64,000 bases of DNA from an uncultured Bacteroidia bacterium (GCA_963543925.1 CAUUCP010000002.1:9485-73484); one strand, 5' to 3'; positions 5,716 to 47,098 are shown, numbered from the stretch's first letter. Notes: generated by a model from the sequence alone, not told the origin. Numbers and translations: made by a program.

Positions 5716-5739
5716 CTTTGCTTCCTCAATTTGTTTGTA

Positions 5740-5747
5740 CAAAGATA
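5740..5747 (-). promoter_or_regulatory. -7 box TATCTTTG for paralog 2
   Basis: TAnnTTTG match with 24 nt between the box and the ATG at 5715. Confidence 0.6.
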
Positions 5748-5874
5748 CAATCCTAACGCCTTTCCGTCACCCTGCAGGACTCGTTACGGGAATCACTGGT
5801 ACGTACCCCATTTCAGTGGTTAGAAAGAAGCACTTATACACACGATGACCATTATACACGATTACCGATAGTAC

Positions 5875-5912
5875 AAAAAAAGAGGATGCTTCGCTTATCG
5901 CGAAACACCCTC
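5875..5912 (-). terminator. rho-independent terminator of the giant adhesin gene
   Basis: On the minus strand: GAGGGTGTTTCGCG-ATAA-GCGAAGCATCCTC followed by TTTTTTT. The stem is about 13 bp including G-U pairs. Confidence 0.7.
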
Positions 5913-5943
5913 TTCTTCTCAAGAAAGAGAACGTATTTTCAAA

Positions 5944-8900: not shown

Positions 8901-11679
8901 GATCTACCTTCACAACAGTGACCTTTGCCTTAGCTTGCTTTCTAGACCCATCGAGAGCATCTACGACAATCTCCGTACTCCCCTCGCCCTTTGCGATAGC
9001 GAGTCCTGTATTCTCATCGATCTTAATGATATTCTCATCTTCTGATTTCCAACGCACACTCTTATCGGTAGCGTTATCGGGCGTGATGAGTAGTTGCTTA
9101 GCAAAATCGAACTCGGTATCCAAGGGGATATTTTCGTAAGACTTTTGTTTGAAAGCAAGCTTTTCAACCAAGATGGCTACCGTTACAAAACACCGGTCGT
9201 AGGCTCGTTCGGTACTATTCTTTACCGTAGCCGTGATGATGGCCTTCCCTACACTCAACCCCTCGATCTTACCATCTTTGTAGACAGCAACTTTATCATC
9301 GGTTGTTGTCCATTCGATCTGGTCAGATTCGTCTGGGGAAACCGTAGCCTTAATTGACTCGCTCGTTCCCTTGTTTACCAACAAAGAAATCTTATCTAGG
9401 TAGAGCTTTTTCACTGTTCCCTTTTCACCATCGTTAATTACCCAGAGCTTGTCATTAGTCAGTGTATTATGCGCGTCCTCACTCTCGAAATACTTAATGG
9501 GTGTAGCATCGAGGGTGATTTTCGTTGACGTTGCGGGATTCGCTGCCCACCCCTTCAATGAGCGGTCGTAGTTCGCAATACTCATGTTACAGCCCGTAAG
9601 GGTGAAGGTACCTCCGAGGCTGGCGAGCTTCCATTTTTCCAAGCAACAGTCAAAAGCTTTTGCCTGAGCGAATAGGTTCTCCATGTTGACAACATTGGAG
9701 ACATCCCACCCTGAGAGGTCGGAATTAAATTTCTTCGTCCCCTCAAACATAGACTCCATGTTTATAACGTTCCCCACTTTCCATGCAGAGAGATCGGAGT
9801 TGAATTCCTGGGCATTTCGGAACATACGATACATGTTGGTCGCGTTGGAGACATCCCACTGCGACAAGTCACTTTGGAACTTGGTCGCCCCCGAGAACAT
9901 CGAACCAAAGTCGGTAGCATTCCCGACTTGCCATTTCGAGAGGTCGCATTTGAACTTACTCGCCCCCGAGAATGTAGCCTTGAACGTTCTCACATTATTG
10001 ACATACCAGCCCGAGAGATCGCCTTCGAAGCTCGTACATCCCGCAAACATATCTTCCATATCCGTGAGGAGGGGTGTTCTCCAGTCACGAAGAGATTGAT
10101 TGAAAGAGGTACACCCAGTGAACATCCCCTTGGCATTCTGAAGACTCTTTAGTGACCAACCGTTGATATTGCCATTGAAGTTGATAGCCCCATTAAACAT
10201 ATAGCGCGTGGAGACAGCGTTTTCCATATCCCAGTTCTCAAGGCTTAACCTCATTTCCTTGCAGGACAGGAACATAGCATCGAATTTCACTCCATTAGAG
10301 ACATGCCAACTGTTAAGCCCATTTCCTACGAACGTCGGACACCTAGCAAACATGTAAGAGAAGTTCGTCACGTTATAAACCTTCTCCGCCCACTTAGAGA
10401 AATCTTGCGTCTTGAGCAATGTACACTCATTGAACATCCAACTCATGTCGGTGACCTTGCTCACATTCCACTTGGAGAGATCCTGTGCAAAGACCCCACA
10501 CTTCGAGAACATCTCCGACATATTGGTAACATTGGTGACGTTCCAGTTCCCTAGATTGCTATCAAACTTCTTGCAATTGGAAAAGAGGCGACTCATGTCC
10601 GTGACACGAGTGACGTTCCACTGCGAGAGATCGGCATTGAACGCCAAACAATCGGCAAACATCCCCGAGAGATTCTCGGCATGATTATCCCCAACCAGCC
10701 ACTGCGACAAATCTCCAGCAAAGATGCTACAACCAGAGAACATGTTCTTGAAGTTCCTGACGTTCTTGACATTCCAGTTCTTAATATCTATATTGAAATA
10801 TTTACAACCGCGGAACATCCCAGACATATCCGTAGCCTTACGCACATCCCATCCCGAAATATCCTCGTTAAAGTTGGAGCAACCATAAAAAAGATTTGAA
10901 AAGGATTCTCCATTGGAGACATCCCAATCCTTCAATCCCATCCCGTGGAAATTACCGCACTCGTAGAAGACATTGTCGAAATTGCGGACTTTCTTGAGCT
11001 TGTCCTTCCACCCCGAAAGATTTTTGTCAAACTTTCCACACTTGAAAAACATTGTGGTGATGCTGGACGCATTGGACATATCCCAGTTACCCAGATCTTC
11101 ATTGAAAAATGAGCAACCATAGAACATGGCACTAAAATATTGCACATTGGAGACATTCCAGCTAGAGGCTCCAATGGTCACAAAGTTCTGATTGCTACAC
11201 CCATAAAACATATTGGAGAGGGAGGTACACCGTTCAAGGTTTGGACTCCCCGCTGATGCGGAAATGGTGAGCTGACTACAATCCTTGAATGCATTGTTAA
11301 ACGACTTCCATTTGATATTCCCCCACTGCTCAACCGACAAGAGGTCGAGGTAGGAGTTCACTTGGATAGATTCGAGATCCCCCAACATCTCAACGATGTA
11401 CTCCACCCCAGCATCCGAATGAAAGCTCCAAGGGAAAACATCTTGATACTCGGTGAACTCCTTTGTCGGGGTCGAAGGACAAGACTCCGAAGCCTTGTAG
11501 ACCCAGATCTTGATCCCCTTCCCCTTGAGAAGCATCTCGGTGTCTTTACCACTATTGGAGCCCTTCCACTTCGTGACAAAAGCTCCTGTCTGATAGGCAG
11601 CCCACGCCTGTCCCACACCTAAGACAAGCAAGAGCAATGGCAACAATATGCCACAACATGCAATCTGCTTTATTTTCAT
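5944..11679 (-). CDS. giant T9SS-secreted surface protein: signal peptide, DUF285/BspA-type leucine-rich repeats, Big_2 Ig-like repeats, T9SS C-terminal sorting domain
   Basis: 1911 aa. The N-terminal signal is MKIKQIACCGILLPLLLLVLGVGQAWA. More than 20 repeats of about 25 aa have the form F..C..F..DLS.W.VSNVT.M..MF (approx aa 120-700). About a dozen Big_2-like units follow (e.g. VSPD..DQ.IEWTTTDDKVA...G.I.GLSVGKAIITATV). The C-terminus VAPNPFSTQLRV...GLYLLQLQMPSG..RTVRVVKR is typical of a T9SS CTD. Confidence 0.85.
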   Translation of the reverse strand: MKIKQIACCGILLPLLLLVLGVGQAWAAYQTGAFVTKWKGSNSGKDTEMLLKGKGIKIWVYKASESCPSTPTKEFTEYQDVFPWSFHSDAGVEYIVEMLGDLESIQVNSYLDLLSVEQWGNIKWKSFNNAFKDCSQLTISASAGSPNLERCTSLSNMFYGCSNQNFVTIGASSWNVSNVQYFSAMFYGCSFFNEDLGNWDMSNASSITTMFFKCGKFDKNLSGWKDKLKKVRNFDNVFYECGNFHGMGLKDWDVSNGESFSNLFYGCSNFNEDISGWDVRKATDMSGMFRGCKYFNIDIKNWNVKNVRNFKNMFSGCSIFAGDLSQWLVGDNHAENLSGMFADCLAFNADLSQWNVTRVTDMSRLFSNCKKFDSNLGNWNVTNVTNMSEMFSKCGVFAQDLSKWNVSKVTDMSWMFNECTLLKTQDFSKWAEKVYNVTNFSYMFARCPTFVGNGLNSWHVSNGVKFDAMFLSCKEMRLSLENWDMENAVSTRYMFNGAINFNGNINGWSLKSLQNAKGMFTGCTSFNQSLRDWRTPLLTDMEDMFAGCTSFEGDLSGWYVNNVRTFKATFSGASKFKCDLSKWQVGNATDFGSMFSGATKFQSDLSQWDVSNATNMYRMFRNAQEFNSDLSAWKVGNVINMESMFEGTKKFNSDLSGWDVSNVVNMENLFAQAKAFDCCLEKWKLASLGGTFTLTGCNMSIANYDRSLKGWAANPATSTKITLDATPIKYFESEDAHNTLTNDKLWVINDGEKGTVKKLYLDKISLLVNKGTSESIKATVSPDESDQIEWTTTDDKVAVYKDGKIEGLSVGKAIITATVKNSTERAYDRCFVTVAILVEKLAFKQKSYENIPLDTEFDFAKQLLITPDNATDKSVRWKSEDENIIKIDENTGLAIAKGEGSTEIVVDALDGSRKQAKAKVTVVKVDPQEIEATPSEISLKPGTTYKLGVVFKPEYTTNKSVKWSTKSTRIKVLNEDTGEIEVVDDNDPNYGGFIEEVIVQHAEKPAVTSRCLVHIIYKKTIVPTHISMEPFTINVNEERHIQPIVTPQDAQNKDLEWWSSKPEILSVDKEGNVKGVKEGEATLRATSVVDRNVFRLVKVTVKAVPVTSVIITRPSEDHVFEIPDNTPATIPYKLEPSNATDKRVQFESENTSIIEVDENNRLVGKTISQTPVRVKVIAQGGANVWKDCLVRVVAKIETKELEIDASRELLPGQTGKLILGYKPEGATDRLVVWETSDSKIVQVSDDGSYKAIEAGDAEITVKLVSNETVRKVCKIKVLPRVTTTGVTLIKNLKLGKGATYTFAPQVEPEHATDKEIAWSVISGADKIEFDVLKRTVKGKEVGEAKIRVYLKNKPSLMSECTIVVEELNELTGDIAFEEPMYEVEQGATIDLKLKYNPPTANNLTLSFLSGDAKLVSIQPHPDKYGYALVRGLALTTEPIEVMGTLENTDPKKTFTTKIKVTPVKRILPAPETFGVKQSTISVLVNSTGVITITGVDHELFDIRKLTWKTSDETKCPVDNSGVVTPKERGSYTIKVSSPSHEETVIVNALESETELVDITAFQAPTAITVFKGATTLIELTGVEPAAASPETLAWSSADEAVATVNKKGFVTGVAVGSVDITITAKNGTSGTVKVKVVEESATDPSKPALTSFDKPDKPVVVVEGNQTLVNLKLTPANGDTSKLEWTSEDESVATVKNGVVTGVKTGETKITVKDANGNSVEIPVTVQSANGNNGGENGNKKPLEDFTLETSSIFVVVGYKTNIDLKLTPEDADMSHIEWSSADEGICTVNNGMVTGVSLGETSITIKDTRINKELTVTVTVVDDRVNSVEEALLAQVEVAPNPFSTQLRVLHDGVTEGRYTLLSTTGIVVRAGELSGAVTVLSTADLPAGLYLLQLQMPSGVARTVRVVKR

Positions 11680-11795
11680 CTATAAACTAGTTAGTTTCAG
11701 AACCGTGATATAAATCTACACACTTCGCTACAACAAAGTAACGCACAAGAGGAAGATATCGTTCATACAAAGCCGACAAAATTCCATACAAACGC

Positions 11796-11803
11796 TATTT
11801 TTG
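11796..11803 (+). promoter_or_regulatory. -7 box TATTTTTG for ribE
   Basis: TAnnTTTG match, 21 nt before the ATG at 11825 and 30 nt before the ATG at 11834. Confidence 0.55.
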
Positions 11804-11824
11804 TATTCGATTCACACATAACGA

Positions 11825-12421
11825 ATGACCAAGATGTTTTCTGGAATTATCGAAGAAGTAGGGATCGTACGCAATATCACCCGCAATGCTGGGAACGTAG
11901 ACCTCTCTCTCTCCTGCTCTTTCCTATCGGAACTGACCATAGACCAAAGCATTGCTCACAATGGGGTATGCCTGACGGTGGTCGACCTCCAACCGACGCA
12001 CTACACTGTCACTGCGATAGAGGAGACCCTCCGGAAGTCGAACCTCGGTCTCTTGGAGGTCGGGAGTAAGGTCAACCTCGAACGGAGTATGAAGATGGAC
12101 GGTCGCCTCGACGGGCACATCGTACAGGGGCACGTAGACCAGACGGCGCGCTGTATGGCGGTGACCCCTGAAAACGGAAGCTGGCTCTACACCTTCGAAT
12201 ACGAGCCTCGCGAGGGGATGATTACGGTAGAAAAAGGTTCTATCACGGTGAATGGCGTGAGCTTGACGGTGGTCAACTCGCGTCGCGGGGGCTTTCAAGT
12301 AGCTATCATTCCCTACACCCACGAACACACCAATTTCCATACTTTCGAGGTGGGGACGATTGTCAACCTCGAATTCGATATTCTTGGCAAATACGTTGCG
12401 GCGTTGATGGGAAAAGCCTAG
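11825..12421 (+). CDS. ribE: riboflavin synthase alpha subunit
   Basis: The N-terminus (MTK)MFSGIIEEVG is canonical (MFTGII...). Two lumazine-binding repeats are present. The start may instead be the ATG at 11834. Confidence 0.85.
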   Translation: MTKMFSGIIEEVGIVRNITRNAGNVDLSLSCSFLSELTIDQSIAHNGVCLTVVDLQPTHYTVTAIEETLRKSNLGLLEVGSKVNLERSMKMDGRLDGHIVQGHVDQTARCMAVTPENGSWLYTFEYEPREGMITVEKGSITVNGVSLTVVNSRRGGFQVAIIPYTHEHTNFHTFEVGTIVNLEFDILGKYVAALMGKA

Positions 12422-12569
12422 CGCGCTGCTACCAGACATTCTCTGGTATCTCGGATAGAAAAGGGGGGCAAGTTGCATTCTTTGACGAATGGAGCTTGCC
12501 CCCTTGAGATTGTCCCCCCCCTACCCGCGAGTAGCGGCTACCCATCTTTGAGCTTTTATCTAGCAACGA

Positions 12570-12608
12570 AAAAGCCGCCCCCCTTGGAGAAGGGGGACGG
12601 CGGGAAAA
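12570..12608 (-). terminator. terminator downstream of SusD-like 1
   Basis: On the minus strand: CCGCCGTCCCCC-TTCTCCAA-GGGGGGCGG-CTTTTT. It is homologous to the terminator at 22611-22647. Confidence 0.7.
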
Positions 12609-12632
12609 ACGTGCTACACTACAATAAGCAGA

Positions 12633-14276
12633 CTAGAAGGTATCGTCCTGAGTCTTCCCCAATGTATTGTCTACGATTGCAGGATTCTGCAATACCTCAC
12701 GTCTTGGGAAGACGAAAAGCATTTCAGGCGCATCTGGTTCGAGGTCGAAACGTGTACCCTGAGGATAGTATTGCATGGTTCCCACTTCAAATTTCTTCGA
12801 ATCACTACGAACCATCTTTTTCTTGAAACGCATCATATCATAGTAGCTAAGCATCTCACCCCAGAACTCTAGACGGCGCTGACGGTAGATCTCATCAAAG
12901 AAATTCACATCGGAGGGGAATTCATACTCTTCATCGCGATTTGTCTTGATGAAGTTCTCTAGATAAGCTTTCCCCTCTGTCTCACCGATCGCTTCAGCAT
13001 AGATGTAGTGCATCTCTTCGATACGCATCATAATGTAGTCTGCCGAATTTTCCTCGAGATCGATATTATTATCCGCAGGTCCGAACTTCACGCTCGCATA
13101 CGTGAGCGTATCAATTCGCTTCATCTCTAAGAAAGCTTCAGCCGACGTCATTGCATCCCCATCACTTTGTCCCTTATACGCCTTGTAATAGTTTACAAGA
13201 CCATCTAGACGTTTTTGAGGTACCGTAGAGATCCACAAAGCACGACGAACGTCATTCTCTCCCATACTCTCATAGAGCGCGGGGTTGATACAACGAGGAA
13301 CGAAATCTGCATAGCATTGTGCGCTACTAAGAAATCCCACAGAAGAGCCCCACCCAGCAATAGCAATAATATCTTCATCGCGACTCGTAACAGGAATCCC
13401 CCACAATACATTGTGATCAGCAATGTCGGACAGACCAGGTCTAGATGCTTCCTCTAGGTTATAGGGAGTAAGACCACTCTTTTCTATGACATACTTTGCA
13501 GCTTCAGCTGCCTTAGCATACTCCTGCATCACGAGGTAAGTACGTGCCAAAAGCCCATAGACCACAAACTCATCAATGAGTGCATTACTCTTTGCATGTC
13601 CCTTACCAGTCAAGGTTTCTTTTGCTTGTTCAAGGTTGGTGACAATGTATTTGTAAATAGTCTCCACCGTTACACGCGGATTGTTGATGAAGTCTTTTTG
13701 CGTCATTGTCTCCGTTACGAGCGGTACGGCCAACTTATCCTTATTGTCTACATAGGTATACTGGTATCCTTGCACCAAATTCAGATAAGACCATGCACGG
13801 AATGCCTTGGCTTGTGCACGTGCATTCTGTACAGCCTCACTCTTAGAGTCTTCTTTCGACGCCAAGATAATCTTATTCGCAGCTCCTATGAAATTGTAGA
13901 AGCAGGTATAGAACTGGTTTGTGATGAAGTAGTTTGGACGAAATCCTGAGTAATCCAGTGCAGGACTATACCAGTCATAATCGCCACAGTTCGACCACAT
14001 GTTATCCGTACGCTCATCTAGCATTAACGAGATACTAGGTAATCCGAAATCGCTGTGCCTCTGACGACTACCAAACTTTGCATATATCTTAAGTTCTGCA
14101 TACATACCGTCCACCGAAGAGGACGCACGGTCGTCAAAAGCATCGCCCGCTTCCTGTACTTGCTTAGTACTCAAGAGATCATCTTCTGGCTGTAGTTCCA
14201 ATTCTTTCGCGCAACTTACAAACAAAGTCGCCCCAAGAAAAAGCCCCACAACGTATGAAAAACGAATATAACGCAT
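12633..14276 (-). CDS. SusD/RagB-family outer-membrane lipoprotein (locus 1)
   Basis: 547 aa. Lipobox LFVSC. SusD-like motifs FRAWSYLNLVQ and YRQRRLEFWGEM..YYDMMR. It lies immediately downstream of a SusC gene. Confidence 0.85.
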   Translation of the reverse strand: MRYIRFSYVVGLFLGATLFVSCAKELELQPEDDLLSTKQVQEAGDAFDDRASSSVDGMYAELKIYAKFGSRQRHSDFGLPSISLMLDERTDNMWSNCGDYDWYSPALDYSGFRPNYFITNQFYTCFYNFIGAANKIILASKEDSKSEAVQNARAQAKAFRAWSYLNLVQGYQYTYVDNKDKLAVPLVTETMTQKDFINNPRVTVETIYKYIVTNLEQAKETLTGKGHAKSNALIDEFVVYGLLARTYLVMQEYAKAAEAAKYVIEKSGLTPYNLEEASRPGLSDIADHNVLWGIPVTSRDEDIIAIAGWGSSVGFLSSAQCYADFVPRCINPALYESMGENDVRRALWISTVPQKRLDGLVNYYKAYKGQSDGDAMTSAEAFLEMKRIDTLTYASVKFGPADNNIDLEENSADYIMMRIEEMHYIYAEAIGETEGKAYLENFIKTNRDEEYEFPSDVNFFDEIYRQRRLEFWGEMLSYYDMMRFKKKMVRSDSKKFEVGTMQYYPQGTRFDLEPDAPEMLFVFPRREVLQNPAIVDNTLGKTQDDTF

Positions 14277-14311
14277 TGTATCAATCCTTTCCTTATTTAA
14301 TTGACTTGGGA

Positions 14312-17300
14312 CTAGAATGTAAGGTTCAAACCTCCAGAGATCGAACGAATCGCCTTATAACCCACCCCAGAGGTTGTAGTAAAGCGAGGGTCAAAACCCT
14401 TGCGGGCAGAGAAAAGCCATACATTGTCAGCTACGACATAGACACGTAGACTACCGACATTGATCTTATCCACCCATGACTTCGGAAGCGTATAACCGAG
14501 CGTCAAATTATCGATAGCGAAAAAGCTACGGCTGGTGAGGAAACGATCAGACGTCTCATTAAACTTAGCATTGCTACTAGCATCCATACGTGGGACGTTT
14601 GTATTGGTATTCTGTGGTGTCCAAGAATTCAAGAGATCCTTGTGCATAGCAGCTCCATTACGGTTACCATTTTGCATCAGATCTTGGTATGCACCATCAA
14701 AACGCTTACCACCGAGAGTATAGGTAAATCCTGCACTGAAGTCAAAATCCCAGAAATCTACACTAGTAGAGATACCACCATTGATGATGGAAGAGAGGTC
14801 TTTCATTTCGACGCGGTTCTCATTCTTCGAAGCTACACTATAGTCGGTAGTCACCCCGTACTGCCCCGTTTTTTTGTCATAGGTTTGCCATAGAGCTTCC
14901 CCCTGCTCATTTACTCCCTTGTACTTTGGAATAAAATAGTCATACAAGGAACCACCTTCCTTATAGATGATACTACCTTCTACATACCCATACTCACTTT
15001 GTTTCCACTCAGCAGGGAGTTTCTCTAGCTTATTTTTTATCATACCACCATTCAGGGTTACTGACCAACGGATATTCTTGTCTTGGTAGGGAACACCCGT
15101 GATCTCAAACTCCATCCCCGTGTTAGACATCGCCCCTACATTGTCCCAAACATAGCGGTAGCCTGATGAGCCTGGCATGGTCAACTTAAACAACATGTCG
15201 GAGACCTCACGACGATAGAGCTCTATATTTCCAGACAAGCGGTGGCGGAAAAAGGCAAACTCTACCCCAAAGTTCAGGTTATGACTCGTTTCCCAAGTAA
15301 TATCATTCCCCTTGTAGTAGAAGGTCGTTGCATAAGCACCGTTATTATTAGTCAGTTTGAAACGATCGAGGTAAGCGAAGTTCACCTCAATATTATCGTT
15401 CCCCTGTATCCCATAGCTAGCCTTTACCTTCAAGAGGTCGAGGAAGCTGCGAGTGGACTCCATAAAGCTTTCATTAGAGAGCATCCACGATGCCCCCACG
15501 CTACCGAAGTTCCCCCAACGTCTATTTTCGGAGAAGCGGCTCGAACCATCGCGACGGAACGAGAGTGTGAGGAAGTACTTCTCAGCAAAGTCATACTGAG
15601 CACGTCCTAGGAAACCTTCTACACGGTAACGACTACGCGAGGAGCTCGTCGAAGGTTGACGGATGGCTTGATCCAATTCCCGAGAATCTGGGTGAAACAT
15701 CCCCTCTTTACTACCACTGAGGTATTGCACATCGCGATCGTAGTATTCATGTCCGAGAAGAACGTCGATGTGATTCTCGCCGTAAGCTTGATTCCAAGTC
15801 AACAATTGTTGAAGATTGAGGGTTGTATAGCGATCGAAGGACTTGTCAATAATACCACCGATAGAGGCAAACTGTCCATAATAGGGGTTACGCGTCGCAG
15901 TCTGGTAAGAATCGTCTAAGTCATACCCTCCGATGATACTGAAACGGAAACCGTAGGGCATAATGAAGTCTGCATTCGAACGCATACCGATGATAGCTGC
16001 GACATTATCGTAGATATCATACGTATTCGCTGCCAATGGGTTGGCTAGAGAAAGGTAAGGACGGATAAGCCCAGGGAACTGTCCTGTACCAAAGTCATAG
16101 ACTGGCTTTCCCCACTTATTCTTCAAAATCTGCTTATTCTTATCGCGTACATAGATCGGGTAAATCGGAGCTGCAAAGTTGGTCATTGCAAAAATGTTCC
16201 CCGAGCTCCCAGAAGATTGGGTCGTTGTCGCATCTAGCGAGTTGGTCTTATACCCCGTATAGGAGAGATTTGCGCCGAGGTTCAACCATGTCTTAGGCTT
16301 AAAATCTCCACGGAGACGCGTGGTAAAACGCTCAAAGTTTGAACGAACGGTATATCCCTTATCATTGAGGTAACCAGAAGAGAAGAAATAATTAGCCTTG
16401 TCAGTACGCCCAGAAAGAGAAACCGTATACTCCTGACGCATGTTCGCTTCAAAAGCTTCTTCGTTCCAATCATCGGGTTGCATCCAATACTCGTTGCCTT
16501 CTTTATCTTTGACAGTGGTCCCTATCGTGGCGCTCTTATCCATCTCCCAGTGACCATCATTCGTTCTTGTAAACCAAGGGTTTGTGCTGCCTTCGGCACG
16601 CGAGAATGGGAAGTATACGATACCCTTTTTCGGATTTGAGAACTCGGCATCAGCTGCCTGAGTGATATCTTCATCATCCTTATCCTTGTTTCCCTTCACG
16701 CGATACTTTTGTTGATTCCATATCGCTTCATAGTACTTTGCTGCATACTGCTTGGGGTCTGTAATCTTGTCATAGTCAGGAATCCCGCGGAAGTTATACC
16801 CTACCTTTGCGGTGACATTTACATTCATGACCCCACCATGACGCGCATTTGCACCATTCTTGGTCGTGATCATCACCACGCCGTTGGCTGCACGAGCCCC
16901 GTAGAGCGCCGCCGAGGCTGCGTCCTTGAGCAATACGGTACTCTCTACGTCAGCGGGGTTGATGGCAGATACATCGCCCTCGTAAGGCATACCATCGACT
17001 ACGTAGAGTGGGTTACTGTTCGCATTAAACGAACCATTTCCTCGAATACGGATTGTGGATGAAGAACCCGGTTGGTTGTTGGAAGAGGTTACCGTAACCC
17101 CTGGCACTTTCCCACTCAAGGCATTCAAGACGTTCGAGACTTGCTTACGCTCTAATTCTTTGCCACTTACCGAGGCTGCCGAACCGGTAAAGGTGCTCTT
17201 TTTCGCCTTACCGAATGCTACGACCATGACCTCGTCGATTTCCTCGTTGGCGAGCTGCATCACTACGTTGATGGTTTCTTGTTCTCCCACCGTAATCTCT

Positions 17301-17542
17301 TGAGTGTCAAAACCTGTGTAAGAAAACACAAGTACCGATTCGGGACCTGCAACACGAATCGAATAACGTCCGTTGGCATCGGTCACAGCTCCCGTTGTTG
17401 TGCCTTTCACTTGCACTGCCAGCTGAATTAATGGAGCGCCGTCTTCGACAGACGTAACCACCCCCGTCACGGTGCGCTGCTGACCCAACGCACAGCTTAT
17501 CCCGACAGCCAAGGCTGCGAGTAGAAGTACTACTTTTCTCAT
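14312..17542 (-). CDS. SusC/RagA-family TonB-dependent receptor (locus 1, full length)
   Basis: 1076 aa. It has a signal peptide, a carboxypeptidase-regulatory-like N-domain (VTGVVTS..DGAPL....V.VKGTTTGAVTDANGRYSI), a plug (NPLYVVDGMPYEG...LKDAASAALYGARAANGVVMITTK) and a beta-barrel ending ...GGLNLTF. Confidence 0.9.
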   Translation of the reverse strand: MRKVVLLLAALAVGISCALGQQRTVTGVVTSVEDGAPLIQLAVQVKGTTTGAVTDANGRYSIRVAGPESVLVFSYTGFDTQEITVGEQETINVVMQLANEEIDEVMVVAFGKAKKSTFTGSAASVSGKELERKQVSNVLNALSGKVPGVTVTSSNNQPGSSSTIRIRGNGSFNANSNPLYVVDGMPYEGDVSAINPADVESTVLLKDAASAALYGARAANGVVMITTKNGANARHGGVMNVNVTAKVGYNFRGIPDYDKITDPKQYAAKYYEAIWNQQKYRVKGNKDKDDEDITQAADAEFSNPKKGIVYFPFSRAEGSTNPWFTRTNDGHWEMDKSATIGTTVKDKEGNEYWMQPDDWNEEAFEANMRQEYTVSLSGRTDKANYFFSSGYLNDKGYTVRSNFERFTTRLRGDFKPKTWLNLGANLSYTGYKTNSLDATTTQSSGSSGNIFAMTNFAAPIYPIYVRDKNKQILKNKWGKPVYDFGTGQFPGLIRPYLSLANPLAANTYDIYDNVAAIIGMRSNADFIMPYGFRFSIIGGYDLDDSYQTATRNPYYGQFASIGGIIDKSFDRYTTLNLQQLLTWNQAYGENHIDVLLGHEYYDRDVQYLSGSKEGMFHPDSRELDQAIRQPSTSSSRSRYRVEGFLGRAQYDFAEKYFLTLSFRRDGSSRFSENRRWGNFGSVGASWMLSNESFMESTRSFLDLLKVKASYGIQGNDNIEVNFAYLDRFKLTNNNGAYATTFYYKGNDITWETSHNLNFGVEFAFFRHRLSGNIELYRREVSDMLFKLTMPGSSGYRYVWDNVGAMSNTGMEFEITGVPYQDKNIRWSVTLNGGMIKNKLEKLPAEWKQSEYGYVEGSIIYKEGGSLYDYFIPKYKGVNEQGEALWQTYDKKTGQYGVTTDYSVASKNENRVEMKDLSSIINGGISTSVDFWDFDFSAGFTYTLGGKRFDGAYQDLMQNGNRNGAAMHKDLLNSWTPQNTNTNVPRMDASSNAKFNETSDRFLTSRSFFAIDNLTLGYTLPKSWVDKINVGSLRVYVVADNVWLFSARKGFDPRFTTTSGVGYKAIRSISGGLNLTF
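15391..15625. repeat. inverted homology block 2 between susC locus 1 and truncated susC locus 2 (partner 19625-19859)
   Basis: About 235 bp at roughly 90+ percent identity. It includes a 68-bp perfect match (cgttgggggaacttcggtagcgtgggggcatcgtggatgctctctaatgaaagctttatggagtccac; locus 2 coordinates 19731-19798). Confidence 0.8.
16847..17048. repeat. inverted homology block 1 (plug-coding region), partner 18195-18389
   Basis: About 200 bp at about 85 percent identity by eye. It encodes NGSF.A..NPLYVVDG.P.EGD...INPADVESTVLLKDAASAALYGARAANGVVMITTKNGANA in both genes. Confidence 0.75.
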
Positions 17543-17679
17543 ACAGCTATCTTTTTGAAAATGAATAACATGTGCTAGTTACCTTTCACTTTGCAAGAGT
17601 GCCAACATCGCCTTGCGACCCCTGTCGTTTCCCACACGAATTTGGTGCTTTTTATTTTCCGCGACGGAGAATCTCTACT

Positions 17680-17687
17680 CAAAGATA
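17680..17687 (-). promoter_or_regulatory. -7 box TATCTTTG, candidate promoter of susC locus 1
   Basis: TAnnTTTG match 137 nt upstream of the ATG at 17542. A T9 run on the minus strand immediately precedes it (plus A-run 17687-17695). Confidence 0.45.
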
Positions 17688-17919
17688 AAAAAAAATAGAA
17701 ACATAAGTGTAACTTTTTGCCCACTTCTTCATCGTATCGGGTTATTCTCCTAGATACTGTCCTACACCTACACAGTGTGTAAAGAAGCTACCTATCTACT
17801 TGTCTACGACTTTTTTTAATGCGCATAGTGTAGACCACTACTTTAGGAAATCCTAAGGCGCTATTTTTATACGATGAGCTAAATAATAGAGTAATTAAAT
17901 AAAGAAATGCGTATAGAAT

Positions 17920-18158
17920 ATGGGCTATTTTGGAGTAGGTAATTTTACCTAATTTAGTCGGTGTAGAGTACGTGTAGAGCACGTGTAGAGTACGTGTAGC
18001 ATTGGTGTACTCCTAGCATGCCTTGTTTTGGGATAGGGAATTGAGGAAAATGTAAAGCGACATTTCCCTGTTTTTCTCCCCAGTTGCTGCGACATTTACA
18101 CACTCTCCTAGGAGAGTATCAAAGATGCGCACATTTTTTACGGACAGTATCTGTATTT
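17920..18158 (+). repeat. intergenic repeat element, copy B (solo, at the truncation junction of susC locus 2)
   Basis: Aligns with copy A and with inverted copy C across ATGGGCTATTTTGG..GGTAATTTTACCTAATTTAG, the 11-mer array, the CTAGCATGCC...CAGTTGCTG core and CACATTTTTTACGGACAGTAT. Confidence 0.8.
17961..18004 (+). repeat. tandem 11-bp repeats GTGTAGAG(T/C)AC x4 (a fifth unit is degenerate)
   Basis: Sequence is gtgtagagtac gtgtagagcac gtgtagagtac gtgtagcattg. The equivalent array in copy C is at 42187-42230. Copy A has a degenerate version (ggagtatatag ggagtatagag) at about 2220-2241. Confidence 0.85.
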
Positions 18159-18194
18159 ATTGGGTGTGTTCCTCTGAAAAGGGTGGTATATATA

Positions 18195-18389
18195 AATGGT
18201 TCGTTTTATGCGAGCAATAACCCACTCTACGTGGTGGACGGTGTGCCCTTTGAAGGGGATATCGCCTCGATCAACCCCGCCGACGTAGAGAGTACCGTCC
18301 TGCTCAAGGATGCAGCCTCGGCAGCCCTCTACGGGGCTCGTGCTGCGAATGGCGTGGTGATGATCACCACCAAGAATGGTGCGAATGCC
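18195..18389. repeat. inverted homology block 1, partner of 16847-17048
   Basis: See the 16847-17048 entry. Confidence 0.75.
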
Positions 18390-19624
18390 AAGAACGCAGG
18401 GATGGCAAATATCAACTTTGCCGCCAAGCTCGGTTACAACTTCCGTGGGATTCCTAGCTACGATCGTATTTCTGATCCCAAGCAATACGCAGAAAAGTAT
18501 TTCGAGGCGGTGTGGAACTCCCATCGTTATAGCAACCCCAAAATTCCCAAAGACGCGGATGACGATGATGTGACAGCGGCAGCGCTGGAAGAAGTATTCG
18601 ATCCCGCGGATGGATATGTATATTTCCCCTTCTCCGTAGGAGACGATAACGTCAATGGAGTAAAACCTACGACCGAGTGGTTTAAGCGTCGTGCCGATGG
18701 CACATGGGCCATAAACCCCAATGCCACCATAGGGCGTTATGTTGAAGATAAGGACGGGAACAAGTATTGGATGCAACCCGATGACTGGGAAAAGGAGGCG
18801 ATTAAGCCCAATATGCGCCAAGAGTATACCCTCTCGATGTCTGGGCGTAGCGAAAAGACCAACTACTTCATGTCTGCAGGATACTTGAACGATAAAGGGT
18901 ATACGAACAATTCGGACTTCACGCGCTATTCCTTCCGTCTGCGTGGCGATTACAAAGCAAAAAGCTGGTTGAACATGGGGGGGAACATCTCCTACACGGG
19001 TTACCAAGGTAATACCCTTGACGGTACAGAGGATGCAGGACTCTCTACAAACCTCTTTAGCGTTTTGGATGTAATCTCCCCTCTGTACCCGATGTATGTT
19101 CGGGATGGGGAGAAGAATATCCTAAAAGGTAGCAACGGGTTACCTGTTTATGACTTTGGTTACGAGCAGTTTCCTGGTATCGAAGCGCGTCCTGGGAGCG
19201 GCTGGGCAAACCCCTTGGCAGAGAATACCTACAATATCAACTTGAGCGATGCGTCGGTACTCGGGCTTCGTAGTTATGCCGACATTCTTATTCCTTACGG
19301 TTTCAAGGTAACGCTCAATGTAGGGTATGATGTAGACAATACCCATTTCACCCGAACCACCAACCCATTCTATGGGCAGTATGCGAGTGAGGGTGGACAG
19401 GTGATCAAGCAGGTAGATTACATCGGTACGCTCAACTTGCAACAACTTGTGAATTGGAGCAAGAGTTTCGATCAGCACAACATCGACCTCCTTATCGGGC
19501 ACGAATATAACACCAAAGAGAGTCGTAACATCTATGGTATACGGGATAAGATGTTTAACTACAAGACCAAGGAATTGGACGGGGCTATCGCCAATCCAAA
19601 GACAGGATCTAGTAGTGAACAGTA

Positions 19625-19859
19625 TCGTGTAGAAGGTTTCTTGGGTCGTGCGCAGTATGACTTTGCAGAGAAGTACTTCCTCACGCTCTCGTTCCGTCGC
19701 GATGGTTCGAGCCGCTTTGCGAAGAATAACCGTTGGGGGAACTTCGGTAGCGTGGGGGCATCGTGGATGCTCTCTAATGAAAGCTTTATGGAGTCCACGC
19801 GCAGCTTCCTAGACCTATTGAAAGTAAAGGCTAGCTATGGGATACAGGGGAATGACAAT
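19625..19859. repeat. inverted homology block 2, partner of 15391-15625
   Basis: See the 15391-15625 entry. Confidence 0.8.
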
Positions 19860-20926
19860 CTGGGAGTAGATTTCGCATACACCGACCTGTATCGTGTCAC
19901 CAACCAGAGCGATAATTTTGGGCTTAACTTCGCTAGCAAGGGGAATCCTAACATCACGTGGGAAAAGAGTAATAACTTCAATATCGGTGCAGAATTCGCC
20001 TTCTTCAAGCATCGTCTGACGGGAGGTATCGAAGTCTTTCGTCGTTCGGTGTCGGATATGTTGTTTAAGTTGAGTGTGCCTGTTTCCAGTGGTTATGCTT
20101 ATTACTGGGATAATATCGGCGCTATGTCCAACACAGGGGTAGATTTCGAGTTGCGCGGTGTGCCCTTCCGTAGCAAGGATATTGAGTGGTCTGTTTACCT
20201 GAACGGAGGTCATGTAACGAACCGTATCGATAAACTCCCTGCAGAGTGGAAGACCAAAGATTATGGTCACGTGGTGGGGACCTTGGTCTATCGTGAAGGA
20301 GGTTCTCTTGGCGATCTTCTCATACCACAGTACCTCGGCGTTACAGAAAACGGAGCGGCTAAGTGGAAGACCCAAGAGGGTGAGACAACCGATTATACCA
20401 CGGCACAGTTGCCCAAGAATAGAACCTACTATACCAATCTCGCTCCGAAGGTTCGTGGTGGTTTCGGTACAAACGTAGATTTCTACGGTTTTGACTTTGG
20501 TGCAGCCTTTAGTTATTCCATCGGCGGACAACTGATAGACGAAGCCTATCAGTCGCTCATGAGACCGAAGAATGGTGATGCAATGCATAAGGATCTCTTG
20601 AAAGCTTGGACACCGAACCGGAAGAGTGATATCCCTCGTCTTGAGACGAACAAAGAGTTCCATCGGACCTCGGATCGTTTCTTGGTATCGCGCACCTACT
20701 TCTCTATCGACAACCTGACCCTTGGCTATACCTTCCCCAAGGCTTGGTTGGACAAGATCAATCTTGGTAGCCTCCGTGTATATGCCGTGGCAGATAATAT
20801 CTGGCTCTTCTCTGCCCGCAAGGGTTTCGACCCCCGCTTTGGTGGTGGTGTGGGTTACAAGGCGATTCGTACCATCTCGGGTGGTCTGAATCTCACATTC
20901 TAACAATCTAGCGAAAGGTTTTCACA

Positions 20927-22591
20927 ATGCGTAATAAACGTGTTTTTTATCTTTTCGGGCTCGCTTTACCAGTCATCTTCTCGAGCTGCTCCAAGGAATT
21001 GGAACTAGAGCCCCAGAACGACTACTTAACCCAGGAGCAAGTCCTAGAATCGTCGCGTGTACGTCCCGAATTGAGTGAAGCGCCTCGGGTGGGGATGTAT
21101 GCCGAGCTCAAGAAATACAACCGTATCGGGGTGGAATCTCAATCCGATTTTGGTATCGGGTCTATCTCTCTTACGCTCGGAAATCGTGGCGATGGGCTCA
21201 TTTGTAACCGTCTAGACGGTTATAACAAATATTGGAAAGATACCGACTATAGTTCTAATTCTCCGACCTCGTTCCAATCGCGCTTTATCTACGAGTCGTT
21301 CTATGCTTTTATCAAAAGCGCCAATGACTTGTTGAAGACTACCGATCCGAAGTCTACTGCAACCGAGGTGGTGCAGTACCGTGCTGAGGCGAAAGCCTTT
21401 CGTGCGTGGGCGTATATGAACCTTGTGCAGATCTTCCAATTCAACTATCAAAAGGATCCCAATGCACTCGGGGTACCGATTATCACGGAAGCGACTTCTA
21501 CACAAGAGACTCTTAAAAACCCCCGCAAGACCCTAACAGAGGTGTACAAGTTCATCGGGGATGATCTAAAGGCTGCCTATGAAGCACTGGCGGGTATGGA
21601 AAATAGTACCTCCCACGCATACATAGACAAGCATGTCGTACGTGGTCTACAGGCGCGGATGCATCTCCTCAAAGGAGAATGGGCGGAGGCGGCAGAGGCG
21701 GCAAAACAAGTGATCGAAAAGAGTGGCGCTAAACCCTTGTCGATGACCGAGGCGAGCATGCCGAACTTTGATGACGGCGAGGCGTCCAACATGCTCTGGG
21801 CAAGTATACAGACCTCAGTGGATCGGCTCACGACCTCGGGGCTTGTAAACTTCCAATCCATGATGTGTTCTCTCTCTGGACGTCTTGCTTATACATCGGT
21901 CGCGCCGATGCGTATCAACCCAGATCTTTACCAGTCTATCAATGAGTCCGATGTGCGTCGCTGCTGGTGGGTAATACCTGAGGACATTGAGAAGAATTCG
22001 ATAAAAAAGAACATCGATGGGATGATTAATCACTTCATGCAGATCTATGGCTTAGATCAAGCCACAGCGACGACCACAGCTGAAAAGTATGTAGCGAAGA
22101 AAGGCTTGAAAGCTTTTACAAATATCAAGTTCGCTCCAGTAGATAAAGACATCTACAAGAAGGAGAACTCTTCGGACTTCCCTTTGATGCGAATTGAGGA
22201 GATGTACTACATCGTGGCAGAGGGTATCGCACACTCCGATCTAGAAAACGGTAAGGAGGTTCTGAAAAGCTTCGTATCCACGTACCGCCAAGAGGACTAT
22301 GACCCCGAGATTGCAGATCTGAACGCCTTTATAGACGAGATCTACCGTCAGCGCCGTCTAGAGTTCTGGGGTGAGATGTTACCCTATTACGATATGATGC
22401 GTTTGAACAAACCCATGGAGCGTATCAAAAAGGATGGAATTGCTTCGCTGATTTATCAGCCTATCCAATCCTTCAACCTCGCTGCAGGGGATCCACGTCT
22501 GATTATGCAGTTCCCCGAGCGTGAGTTATCGCAGAACCCAGCGATAGTGCAGAACGAATACAAGGCACCTCCTTCAAATGAAGCGAAATAG
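20927..22591 (+). CDS. SusD/RagB-family outer-membrane lipoprotein (locus 2, intact)
   Basis: 554 aa. Lipobox VIFSSC. Paralogous to locus 1 SusD (FRAWAYMNLVQ, IYRQRRLEFWGEMLPYYDMMR). Confidence 0.85.
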   Translation: MRNKRVFYLFGLALPVIFSSCSKELELEPQNDYLTQEQVLESSRVRPELSEAPRVGMYAELKKYNRIGVESQSDFGIGSISLTLGNRGDGLICNRLDGYNKYWKDTDYSSNSPTSFQSRFIYESFYAFIKSANDLLKTTDPKSTATEVVQYRAEAKAFRAWAYMNLVQIFQFNYQKDPNALGVPIITEATSTQETLKNPRKTLTEVYKFIGDDLKAAYEALAGMENSTSHAYIDKHVVRGLQARMHLLKGEWAEAAEAAKQVIEKSGAKPLSMTEASMPNFDDGEASNMLWASIQTSVDRLTTSGLVNFQSMMCSLSGRLAYTSVAPMRINPDLYQSINESDVRRCWWVIPEDIEKNSIKKNIDGMINHFMQIYGLDQATATTTAEKYVAKKGLKAFTNIKFAPVDKDIYKKENSSDFPLMRIEEMYYIVAEGIAHSDLENGKEVLKSFVSTYRQEDYDPEIADLNAFIDEIYRQRRLEFWGEMLPYYDMMRLNKPMERIKKDGIASLIYQPIQSFNLAAGDPRLIMQFPERELSQNPAIVQNEYKAPPSNEAK

Positions 22592-22610
22592 TTCTTTGTA
22601 GCGTCTTTTC

Positions 22611-22647
22611 CCGCCGTCCCCCTTCGCCAAGGGGGGCGGTTTTTTTT
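22611..22647 (+). terminator. terminator downstream of SusD-like 2
   Basis: CCGCCGTCCCCC-TTCGCCAA-GGGGGGCGG-TTTTTTTT. It is the reverse-complement homolog of the 12570-12608 terminator. Confidence 0.75.
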
Positions 22648-22773: not shown

Positions 22774-24066
22774 ATGCTTGTACAATTCTCTGTAGAGAAC
22801 TATATGACCTTTAGACACAAGGCGACACTCAGTCTTGTAGCATCCAACTATGACAAGCAAACCCGCGAGACCGAGAATGTGATCCTAGTAAAGCCCTTCC
22901 GACTACGCTTATTACGTAGCGCTGCAATTTATGGTGCGAATGCAAGCGGTAAAACCAAGCTACTAGAGGCACTATTATTTATGCGCAACTTCGTACTCAC
23001 AAGCTCTAAGGAAGGACAAAAGGGAGACACGATAGATGTCGAACCTTTTCGCCTGAATGTAGCAAGTGAAAAAGAGCCCAGTGAGTTTGAGGTGATCTTT
23101 TATGCCACTAATAAGCTTTATCGATACGGTTTCTCTGTGAACAAAGAGCAGGTATGTGAAGAATGGCTGTATGTAAAAGCTTTACGTAAAGAAGTGGAGA
23201 TCTTTGTGCGGGAAGGGGAACACATGCACATCCATGACAAGTATTTTTCACGCGGGAAACGCCTCTGGGAAGACAAGATGGTGCGAAACAATGCGCTCTT
23301 CCTCTCTGTGGCGGCACAGTTTAACGACGAATTGGCAGGAGAGGTACTGGCTTGGTTTCTGAACTTAAAGATTATTTCTGGGTTACGTAAAGAAGGGTTC
23401 GAGAGCGTTACCTTATCTCAACTCACGAATTCGGAATTCAAGAAAACTCTATTGCATCTCTTACAGGCAGCAGACATCGCGTTAGAGGATATTGAACTCA
23501 AGCGAGATAACCCCGAAGAGCACCTCCCCAAAGAACTTATCCAGCATTTGAAACAACTCAATCCGAATGCCGTCTTTTACCATGACCTCAACACCTTTCA
23601 CAGAAAGTTTGATGCCCAAGGAAATCTACTAACAGAACGCGCCGTCTTCTCCTTCAATGAGAATGAATCGGCTGGTACACAGCAGTTCTTTTCGATAGTG
23701 GGTCCGATTATTGATGTTCTGGTACACGGCTACCTCCTCTATGTCGACGAGCTAGATGCACGCTTACATCCCCGTTTAGTCAGTGCTCTTCTCGCTCTTT
23801 TCAATTCGGCACAAAGTAATCCTCACGATGCGCAGTTGATATTTAATACCCATTATAGCCAACTCTTAGACACTGGCTTGCTCCGTCGCGATCAGGTCTG
23901 GTTTGTAGAAAAGAATGCTCTAGAAGAAGGCTCGCTCTATTCTCTTTCTGATTTCAAAGGCACCCGAAGAGATGAACCCTTCCAACGGAACTACTTACTT
24001 GGGAAGTATGGGGCGGTTCCCATAATAGAAGATTTAACTAGTATAATAGACCATGATGACAAATAA
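22774..24066 (+). CDS. AAA_21/ABC-type ATPase, AbiLi-like defence ATPase
   Basis: 430 aa. The N-terminus MLVQFSVENYMTF... is typical of this family. Walker A GANASGKTKLLEAL and Walker B LLYVDELDARLHP are present. It overlaps the downstream RloB gene by 14 nt. Confidence 0.75.
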   Translation: MLVQFSVENYMTFRHKATLSLVASNYDKQTRETENVILVKPFRLRLLRSAAIYGANASGKTKLLEALLFMRNFVLTSSKEGQKGDTIDVEPFRLNVASEKEPSEFEVIFYATNKLYRYGFSVNKEQVCEEWLYVKALRKEVEIFVREGEHMHIHDKYFSRGKRLWEDKMVRNNALFLSVAAQFNDELAGEVLAWFLNLKIISGLRKEGFESVTLSQLTNSEFKKTLLHLLQAADIALEDIELKRDNPEEHLPKELIQHLKQLNPNAVFYHDLNTFHRKFDAQGNLLTERAVFSFNENESAGTQQFFSIVGPIIDVLVHGYLLYVDELDARLHPRLVSALLALFNSAQSNPHDAQLIFNTHYSQLLDTGLLRRDQVWFVEKNALEEGSLYSLSDFKGTRRDEPFQRNYLLGKYGAVPIIEDLTSIIDHDDK

Positions 24067-47074: not shown

Positions 47075-47098
47075 TACAAACGAATGGAGGAAGCAAAG

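Follow-up and report, generated by a model that had tools for sequence, protein, structure and literature searches.

The stretch of DNA analysed here (64,000 nt; hereafter the window) contains a genuine susC/susD shufflon of a known kind, and it is likely that this locus represents a minimal, two-cassette version operated by a site-specific invertase encoded elsewhere. A full-length susC/susD pair on the minus strand faces a promoterless susC'/susD pair on the plus strand (Table 1). The positions given in the original prediction for the open reading frames, the inverted blocks, the promoter box and the pair of terminators are all accurate to within a few bases.

Table 1. Coordinates of the features of the two-cassette susC/susD locus in the window
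Feature	Position	Strand	Description
Terminator 3' of susD1	12569-12608	-	Intrinsic; 12-bp stem, T-run; inverted copy of the susD2 terminator
susD1	12633-14276	-	547 aa; ORF, Pfam SusD-like_3 and SusD_RagB; partner of susC1
susC1	14312-17542	-	1076 aa; signal peptide, CarboxypepD_reg, Plug, barrel; joined to promoter segment (ON state)
Block 2, left copy	15366-15628	-	Homogenised, in barrel-coding region; partner 19623-19885
Left recombination site	17016-17049	-	GTATTCGAGGAAATGG-TT-CGTTTAATGCGAACAG; core GTTCGTTT at 17034-17027
Invertible segment	17034-18199		~1166 bp: susC codons 1-169, conserved 5' leader, promoter, dispersed-repeat insertion, 'truncated-side' end
Bacteroidetes -7 box	17680-17687	-	TATCTTTG, driving susC1; sole TAnnTTTG in 17400-18300
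Dispersed ~250-bp repeat	17838-18085		11-bp tandem units (GTGTAGAGTAC x3.5), inserted in invertible segment
susC' mechanical ORF	18084-20903	+	
Right recombination site	18184-18217	+	TGGTATATATAAATGG-TT-CGTTTTATGCGAGCAA; core GTTCGTTT at 18199-18206; exact start of susC' body
susC' body	18199-20903	+	~901 codons; promoterless, lacking codons 1-169; OFF cassette
Block 2, right copy	19623-19885	+	Partner 15366-15628
susD2	20927-22591	+	554 aa; ORF and Pfam; partner of susC'
Terminator 3' of susD2	22606-22645	+	Intrinsic

The absence from susC' of a promoter, signal peptide, N-terminal domain and first part of the plug was confirmed by ORF, homology and Pfam analyses and by a promoter-box scan, and its uninterrupted 2.7-kb frame and intact susD partner by ORFs and Pfam. 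Compared with the CarboxypepD_reg, complete Plug and barrel domains of susC1, only the last ~58 Plug positions and the barrel are present in susC', the truncation point corresponding to residue ~169. Homology between the two genes begins abruptly at AAATGGTTCGTTT (18194 and 17039, respectively), and the sequences upstream are unrelated. The two outer repeats are 95% complementary, and both copies score as intrinsic terminators. No promoter box (TAnnTTTG) facing susC' was found in 17400-18300, and the box predicted for susC1 is kept, together with the 5' leader, in orthologs. In the present orientation, susC' is presumably silent. When the reverse complement of 17040-17542 was joined to 18194-20903, an open frame of 1070 codons was obtained, which is consistent with the in-frame fusion proposed originally. 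The segment varies in length from 743 bp (L056) to 1166 bp (window), and the dispersed repeat is absent from L056-type segments. Further copies of this repeat were observed at 42101-42349 and 2242-2328.

Comparison of related strains, which had been suggested as a check, revealed both orientations (L056/L057 versus L131/L058, and the window versus L059). The same cassettes A and B are present in L131 and L056/L057 (99.2% and 98.3% identity), whereas the central 738-743 bp are 98.1% identical when compared inverted and only 26% when compared collinearly. The full-length copy is B in L056/L057 and A in L131, the other cassette being truncated in each case. Relative to L056, L058 is inverted in the same way but has a different right cassette. 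A second example is provided by L059, which is 92% identical to the window across 6.9 kb of left flank. Here, the truncated susC adjoins the riboflavin-synthase gene and is preceded by a homolog of window 18121-18198; a contig from the same sample (L060) carries the susD2-type cassette and the right flank of the window. The left cassette is therefore OFF in this relative (L059/L060). The opposite orientations come from different strains that are 98-99% identical and not from one clone, each assembly showing one orientation; reversibility within a population would be expected.

Such differences might in principle be metagenome assembly artefacts at inverted repeats. Several related contigs (L059, L060, L061, L063 and L130) do end within or close to the locus, and L130, which switches in block 2 inside a 35-40-nt common stretch without GTTCGTTT, may be a chimera at this block. 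However, each state is backed by two of four independent metagenome assemblies from four samples (L056, L057, L058 and L131), and the junctions of the inverted relatives are precise and in frame. Moreover, perfect runs in the junction arms do not exceed ~20 nt, which is too short for k-mer assemblers to flip the segment. An artefact is thus hardly conceivable.

The short inverted sites for which a search within block 1 had been suggested were found as a conserved ~34-bp imperfect palindrome with GTTCGTTT. The left site lies in frame at susC1 codons ~165-176 and includes an exact GTTCGTTTAA at 17025-17034, and the right one includes an exact GTTCGTTTTA at 18199-18208. On the basis of segment- and body-specific SNPs, the exchange could be confined to GTTCGTTTTCTGC in L056/L058/L131 and to GTTCGTTT in the window/L059. 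The crossover falls inside the palindrome and within the first 8-18 nt of homology, the inner side having none. GTTCGTTT was present at all 13 junctions of two-cassette loci examined and in none of six single-cassette orthologs, in which the same xGSF is encoded by other codons. Both boundary and motif are kept across lineages whose cassettes are just ~60% identical. In the 64-kb window, GTTCGTTTWA occurs twice (0.24 expected), at the two junctions and in inverted orientation. Dyad symmetry around the central TT extends over 8-11 of 16 positions, and truncated-side sites read AAAACG-TT-CGTTTT. In two lineages, the truncated side varies (TG/AC) at the dinucleotide next to the core, a pattern that just one cut at the central TT leaves unexplained.

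The original prediction left the mechanism between homologous recombination and a distant invertase. Because the crossover lies at the extreme edge of homology, a site-specific process, and with it the distant enzyme, is favoured over homologous recombination. RecA-dependent exchange involving the block-1 arms of ~195 bp, and also block 2, could give occasional inversions without a dedicated recombinase, and this would fit arms that are 85-89% identical, the lack of a recombinase gene nearby and the L130 switch in a stretch devoid of the motif. Block 1 (16845-17039 and 18194-18388; 195 nt, 85% identical) was indeed found with the expected identity and starts at the truncation boundary, although its left arm ends at 17039 instead of 17048. 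However, its longest perfect runs are ~17 nt, and crossovers with unrelated sequence on one side are unusable as a substrate for RecA. The identity of the window pair is 0.84, compared with 0.70-0.76 for either copy to single-copy orthologs, indicating that the nucleotide similarity of block 1 mostly reflects ordinary constraint on the plug-domain protein. Block 2 (263 nt, 89% identical, with a 68-nt perfect run) behaves differently: the pair is 0.88 identical, as opposed to 0.65-0.75 with single-copy orthologs, and identity at synonymous codons reaches 85-88% versus a background of ~45%, which indicates that it is truly homogenised, as gene conversion would give. The earlier view that both blocks are far more similar than the rest of the genes is corrected accordingly for block 1. 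The conservation of boundary and motif in two-cassette loci and their absence from single-copy orthologs also argue against RecA, which we consider very unlikely to be responsible.

If susC'/susD2 were a pseudo-operon that has not yet decayed, left by an ancient inverted duplication and followed by rare, effectively irreversible rearrangements, signs of decay by frameshifts or stops might be expected in orthologous copies. None were seen: all six independent truncated copies have intact 2.7-kb frames. The dN/dS values were 0.15 and 0.07 for window susC' against L060 and L056_B, respectively, 0.17 for susD2 against L060, 0.04-0.05 for truncated versus full copies of the same cassette and 0.026 between two truncated copies (L059 and L056_A; dS saturated). 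Such values (0.03-0.15 for the truncated copies) indicate purifying selection. A relic would agree with the single orientation per assembly, with the dispersed repeat inserted in the intergenic part and with the NCBI protein collection, in which the susD2 product is present and that of susC' has not been released. On the other hand, strains of one lineage that diverged by only 1-2% include both states, and a second lineage shows the opposite one, making a relic highly improbable. Together with the orientations in relatives, purifying selection supports the idea put forward originally that inversion of the promoter and 5' coding region between the block-1 copies would switch SusC/SusD pairs.

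With regard to the enzyme, searches of the 64-kb window detected no recombinase gene, as had been noted for the immediate neighbourhood, nor was one seen in the flanks of L056/L058, and a Hin-based tblastn search over 1.8 Mb of sequence gave no invertase match. Capsule-promoter inverted repeats, as quoted in PMC8375218, contain ARACGTTCGTN (B. fragilis Mpi) and GTTCGTTTAA (B. intestinalis). The L059 site, AAACGTTCGTTTAA, includes both of these quoted motifs. L056, L057, L058 and L059 have an exact ARACGTTCGT at their truncated-side sites, whereas both window sites read AAATGG-TT-CG, not AAAACG-TT-CG, and match it at 8 of 10 positions. Since the site matches these repeats, an Mpi-like serine invertase is the most likely candidate, by motif resemblance alone; it would probably act in trans and differ in class from the enzymes of known susC shufflons.

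A tyrosine recombinase encoded elsewhere (Tsr0667- or BT1041-like), with a 6-8-bp overlap in or next to GTTCGTTT, could drive the same switch. All characterised susC shufflons use such enzymes (BT1041 with a 7-bp crossover; Tsr0667 acting globally), and the TG/AC polymorphism 5' of the core would arise more readily from heteroduplex repair if the overlap were longer. The Tsr0667 inverted-repeat consensus, however, is reportedly AGTYYYN4GDACT, which has no match in the window. In addition, the dyad centre is TT and not an 8-bp spacer, and all 14 nt obtained by merging the published Mpi-type and capsule-promoter repeats are present in the site. We therefore regard a tyrosine enzyme as a real but minor possibility.

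The suggestion that the mechanism would be new for this type of locus was overstated, considering the susC shufflons with 5'-truncated copies (10.1101/521070) and the non-adjacent global invertase Tsr0667 (PMC4747536). In the B. thetaiotaomicron BT1040/BT1042/BT1046 PUL, 5'-truncated susC genes are swapped by site-specific recombination (Porter et al., 10.1101/521070). Shared with the window are one full-length susC accompanied by 5'-truncated paralogs, a separate susD operon for each of them, the transfer of promoter and N-terminal portion to a different cassette by recombination within the 5' coding region, and a crossover narrowed by SNP tracking to a few bp. That system differs in having three cassettes, an internal tyrosine recombinase (BT1041), ECF-sigma/anti-sigma control and glycan-degrading genes, whereas the window locus has two head-to-head cassettes, no enzymes, regulators or local recombinase, and a different site sequence. 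According to the accounts available in PMC4747536 and PMC9881135 (Nakayama-Imaohji 2009), Tsr0667 acts globally on distant B. fragilis SusC/SusD shufflons, in which inversion likewise selects the expressed pair and the invertase need not be adjacent; it is a tyrosine recombinase, unlike the enzyme favoured here, and its consensus is absent from the window. The Mpi/FinA capsule invertons (Coyne 2003; B. intestinalis PVR7-12), as described in PMC8375218, share the core motifs and a promoter-bearing invertible element, with a recombinase encoded elsewhere that serves many loci. Those elements are ~183-230-bp intergenic promoter flips turning one operon ON or OFF; the window segment is not such a short (~0.2 kb) flip, being 0.74-1.17 kb with sites in frame within coding sequence, so that the N-terminus is swapped and the choice is either/or between two operons. 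Thus, this type of susC/susD switch is known in gut Bacteroides, and the capsule-promoter-like flip site is what differs.

The locus had also been described as rag-like, which is appropriate only in the broad sense of the SusC/RagA family. Specific RagA/RagB orthology was rejected: the similarity is at the family level, susC1 matching a B. thetaiotaomicron SusC homolog (8aa4, 6e-96) slightly better than RagA (6sli, 3e-91), itself one of its best matches among solved structures, and SusD2 matched RagB with an E-value of only 4e-06. P. gingivalis ragA/ragB is likewise a SusC/SusD-family pair that stands alone, with no glycan enzymes, and several divergent rag alleles exist among strains. To our knowledge, however, rag is a single expressed pair subject to allelic replacement between strains and not an invertible two-cassette locus. 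By RimO, the closest named relatives are ~51% identical and Rikenellaceae-like, placing the host among uncultured Bacteroidales and not in Porphyromonas.

In the proposed switch, one ~1.17-kb segment between two head-to-head cassettes would carry the sole promoter, the 5' leader and codons 1-169 of susC, which encode the signal peptide, the N-terminal domain and the first plug part. Each cassette comprises a susC body followed by a susD and a terminator. The distant invertase would recombine the two inverted palindromes, centred on G-TT-CG in GTTCGTTT and in frame at the N-G-S-F codons of susC, a serine enzyme presumably cutting at the central TT. Inversion would separate susC1 from its promoter and 5' end, both of which would be fused in frame to susC'. 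Because the promoter and 5' end would be joined to one cassette at a time, exactly one SusC/SusD pair would be made. The bacterium would thus be able to express either transporter pair by means of a flip site resembling that of capsule promoters, and the pay-off may be variation of a surface antigen, a phage receptor or the substrate.

The coordinates originally predicted for the susC and susD genes agreed with our ORF, domain and repeat analyses of the window, which lies in a 93,288-bp contig. Translation revealed that the likeness of susC' to susC1 starts abruptly at ...NGSF.A.NPLYVVDG, and that the frame 5' of NGSF is unrelated to susC1 and contains stops. The two cassette halves have a background identity of 55-65% and share three inverted repeat pairs; an intrinsic terminator score was obtained for both copies of the outer pair. 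When the reverse complement of 17040-17542 was fused in silico to 18194-20903, an open frame of 1070 codons resulted. The sole TAnnTTTG box in 17400-18300 is oriented toward susC1, and neither glycan-degrading genes nor regulators were found at the locus.

Features of the two-cassette locus and its surroundings (window coordinates)
Feature	Position	Strand or orientation	Remarks
susD1	12633-14276	minus	
susC1	14312-17542	minus	CarboxypepD_reg at N-terminus, complete Plug, barrel
susC' ORF	18084-20903	plus	barrel and only last ~58 Plug positions
susD2	20927-22591	plus	
Block 1	16845-17039 / 18194-18388	inverted pair	85% (repeat search)
Block 2	15366-15628 / 19623-19885	inverted pair	89% (repeat search)
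Outer repeat (terminators)	12569-12608 / 22606-22645	inverted pair	95% (repeat search)
TAnnTTTG box	17687-17680	toward susC1	TATCTTTG
GTTCGTTTWA	17025-17034 / 18199-18208	minus / plus	
Dispersed ~250-bp intergenic repeat	17838-18085; 42101-42349; 2242-2328	second copy inverted	81% (second copy), 91% (third copy); 3.5 tandem 11-mers GTGTAGAGTAC
AAA_21 + RloB gene pair	22774-24712		AAA_21, AbiEii/OLD-like ATPase
AAA-ATPase_like + PDDEXK_9 genes	2363-4000; 4093-5742; 47072-48733		three paralogs, 545-553 aa
DUF285/Big_2 protein	5944-11679		1911 aa; six DUF285 and eight Big_2 repeats

Both orientations of the locus could be identified in relatives, which supports the proposal that inversion switches the cassette pairs. 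Using the predicted chimera as a query against a protein collection, we found full-length relatives (for example, P0001, 81%, 1070 aa) and relatives without the same ~165 N-terminal residues (P0004, P0018 and P0019; 910, 906 and 890 aa, respectively), and their contigs had the same head-to-head architecture. Two related loci, L056 and L057, have a truncated susC of 911 aa on the left and a full-length one of 1070 aa on the right, whereas L058 and L131 have the full-length gene (1075 aa) on the left and the truncated one (906 aa) on the right. The same cassette pair occurs in L131 and L056 (left, 99.2% over 5.2 kb; right, 98.3% over 3.4 kb), and their centres (738-743 bp) are 98.1% identical when inverted versus 26% when collinear. 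The centre of L058 is likewise inverted relative to L056 (97-98%), with an identical left cassette and a different allele on the right. Window 5692-12601, with the genes for the DUF285 giant protein and riboflavin synthase, has a counterpart of 91.9% identity in a further locus, L059. The cassette next to the riboflavin synthase gene of L059 is truncated, and the sequence before it is homologous to window 18121-18198, where the invertible segment has its 'truncated-side' end. The sample that yielded L059 also contained L060, which carries a susD2-type cassette (95% at the amino-acid level) followed by the AAA_21/RloB genes of the window. Thus, the state opposite to that of the window exists in a sister lineage. 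Two candidates for further truncated susC genes, L011 and L051, were rejected as full-length. When metagenomes were searched with the N-terminal segment, the further matches were confined to single-cassette relatives and short fragments, and a SusD2 search of genome contigs found no conspecific genome (best match 62%).

Alignment of the junctions defined the point of exchange. All 13 two-cassette junctions read ...AAA(TG/AC)-GTTCGTTT-(T/A)..., and GTTCGTTT occurred in none of six single-cassette orthologs (L003, L004, L005, L064, L065 and L066), which encode the same xGSF with other codons. In the window, GTTCGTTTWA is present only twice (0.24 expected). Nucleotides linked to the invertible segment stop 1-6 nt before the core, and those of the cassette body begin 1 nt (window and L059) or 6 nt (L056 and L131) after it, which places the exchange within 8-18 nt at the extreme edge of homology; the inner side of the exchange point is unrelated sequence. 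Judged from the sequences, this pattern is what would be expected of a site-specific recombinase. RecA-dependent recombination cannot use a substrate with homology on one side only. Therefore, of the two mechanisms in the original prediction, a distant invertase was favored by the crossover position, and homologous recombination was disfavored. Each site forms an imperfect palindrome centred on TT (T.GCT...A.AAAACG-TT-CGTTTT.T...AGC.A, with symmetry at 8-11 of 16 positions); on the truncated side of L056, L058 and L059, the palindrome is perfect over 6+2+6 nt. Immediately 5' of the core, the truncated side reads AAATG in the window (18194-18198), L131 (~3397-3401) and L130 (236-240), and AAAAC in L056 (8298-8302), L057, L058 (9010-9014) and L059 (235-239); the full-length side always reads AAATG. 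One crossover at the central TT leaves this truncated-side TG/AC polymorphism, seen in two lineages, unaccounted for.

With regard to the enzyme, the reported absence of an adjacent recombinase was borne out: no recombinase domain was detected among the substantial ORFs of the 64-kb window, and domain analysis and inspection of locus flanks revealed no recombinase gene near any of the related loci. A tblastn search with a Hin sequence over 1.8 Mb gave no match, and a 300-316-aa gene beside the left susD in L056 and L058 was rejected as a recombinase candidate because it encodes a coiled-coil protein. The motif of Tsr0667, the tyrosine recombinase of B. fragilis susC shufflons, was absent from the 64-kb window. 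A conserved GTTCGTTTAA flanks five capsule promoters of B. intestinalis (PMC8375218) and overlaps the ARACGTTCGTN repeats of B. fragilis promoters controlled by the serine invertase Mpi (PMC8375218; also 10.1101/2024.11.17.624012). Taking both motifs as quoted in PMC8375218, we found that the L059 site, AAACGTTCGTTTAA, is their exact union. The left site of the window contains GTTCGTTTAA exactly. Sites of the Hin/Gin type consist of a non-palindromic central dinucleotide between inverted half-sites. The combination of capsule-inverton repeats with a Hin/Gin-like layout favors a trans-encoded Mpi-like serine invertase as the putative enzyme, an assignment made by motif resemblance only. A tyrosine recombinase is a live alternative to this assignment, considering that the two window sites read AAATGG, not AAAACG, and that a simple cut at TT leaves the TG/AC polymorphism unexplained.

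The unusual similarity claimed for blocks 1 and 2 was rechecked in a codon alignment of the window copies with ten further cassettes and single-copy orthologs, and it held for block 2 only. The window copies of block 1 are 0.84 identical to each other, and either is 0.70-0.76 identical to single-cassette orthologs, so most of the block-1 similarity reflects ordinary plug-motif constraint. The copies of block 2 are 0.88 identical versus 0.65-0.75 to single-copy orthologs, with a synonymous-codon identity of 85-88% versus ~45% elsewhere, and block 2 has been homogenised among cassettes. Among the related loci, L130 (236-2957 of a 3.4-kb HMP scaffold, ERZ28575122) has a truncated susC that matches cassette B at 98-100% as far as block 2 and cassette A at 98-100% from there on, with the switch point in a 35-40-nt stretch common to both; it arose either by inversion at block 2 or as a chimera of the assembly. 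Except for L130, the cassettes showed congruent relationships in their 5' and 3' halves, and no wider mosaicism was seen.

At least four types of cassette body could be distinguished. The window contains C1 and a B-like body, L056 and L131 contain A and B, L058 contains A and R, and L059/L060 contain A-like and B-like bodies. The site marks the 5' boundary of every cassette and a near-identical terminator its 3' boundary, which suggests allele-like cassette replacement between strains. The terminators after both susD genes are near-identical in every two-cassette locus (3812-3863 and 13469-13520 in L056), with bodies (A, B, R, C1) varying by strain, and together with the site they may act as homology anchors for replacement. 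In L061 and L062, the SusD1-type cassette adjoins an AbiEi_2 gene, not riboflavin synthase.

The original prediction had stressed the uninterrupted 2.7-kb frame of susC', and all truncated copies indeed keep frames of ~2.7 kb. The dN/dS ratio was 0.15 between susC' and L060 (630 codons, dS 0.21), 0.07 between susC' and L056_B, 0.026 between L059 and L056_A (both truncated in their assemblies), and 0.04-0.05 between truncated and full-length copies of one cassette. By these ratios, truncated copies are indistinguishable from expressed genes, which argues that OFF cassettes are expressed often enough to remain under selection.

Even single-cassette orthologs keep the promoter, -7 box and ~135-nt leader. 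A strongly conserved stretch of the leader (17543-17676 and orthologs), GCGATGTTGGCACTCTTGCAAAGTG, is common to two-cassette and single-cassette orthologs; no supported consensus structure was obtained for the leader (-0.8 kcal/mol, 6 pairs), and 16500-18700 had no Rfam match. The invertible segment is ~400 bp longer in the window (1166 bp) than in L056 (743 bp), owing to the insertion, at ~17838-18085, of a dispersed repeat that contains 11-bp tandem units. Short inverted repeats flank this copy (17752-17762 / 18142-18152, and others), and another copy lies upstream of an unrelated susC at 38633-41923. The repeat looks MITE-like.

RimO of the window shares at most ~51% identity with named species (Rikenella, Millionella and Alistipes). 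The host belongs to an uncultured Bacteroidales lineage, not Porphyromonas. Since the matches of susC1 to solved SusC homologs are about as good as its match to RagA, the description 'rag-like' is appropriate at the family level but not beyond it. Directly 3' of susD2, the AAA_21 and RloB genes are shared with L060 and missing from the syntenic L056 and L058 loci; they are probably a small defence island inserted next to the switch. Two of the three AAA-ATPase_like + PDDEXK_9 genes are in tandem. The 1911-aa protein just left of the locus, 92% conserved in L059, is probably a giant surface protein.

The original prediction held that the mechanism would be new for a rag-type locus, which overstates its novelty, as switching of this kind is established for susC genes. 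In B. thetaiotaomicron, the 5'-truncated susC genes BT1040/1042/1046 acquire a common promoter and N-terminus through recombinase BT1041 with a 7-bp crossover (10.1101/521070); in B. fragilis, Tsr0667 serves three SusC/SusD clusters as a global recombinase (PMC4747536). In addition, predicted targets of programmed inversion across bacteria are significantly enriched in SusC/RagA genes (PMC9881135). The window locus is a real, well-supported instance of this known susC/susD recombination switch. Its distinguishing features are a minimal design of two head-to-head cassettes, the lack of a local recombinase, its deep uncultured host lineage and, chiefly, its site, which is of the capsule-promoter (Mpi) class and lies in frame inside the gene.

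A joint reading, which we consider tentative and rather unlikely as a whole, would combine an Mpi-like master invertase co-opted to the in-frame susC site with block-2 exchange and allele-like swapping. Enzymes of this class invert capsule promoters; in this uncultured Bacteroidales lineage, one of them would act on a site in frame in the plug-coding region of susC, so that a single trans-acting enzyme would vary both the type of capsule and a major surface transporter of the SusC/SusD kind. Motif-less block-2 exchange, as in the B-5'/A-3' chimera of L130, would add mosaic barrels and give four SusC variants from two cassettes, and strains would exchange, in the manner of alleles, the bodies that lie between the site and the identical terminators.

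For genome annotation, 'truncated susC pseudogenes' adjoining a full-length paralog are best read as silent cassettes; where MAG contigs break at such loci or disagree in orientation, the reason is biology, not error. SusC/SusD complexes of Bacteroidota serve as dominant surface antigens, as gates for nutrients and as receptors for phages. The locus extends either/or switching between entire SusC/SusD pairs from cultured gut Bacteroides to a deep uncultured lineage of the Bacteroidales, where it takes a very compact form with two cassettes and a site of the capsule-promoter class. If the enzyme assignment is true, transporter and capsule variation would be coupled through one global invertase.
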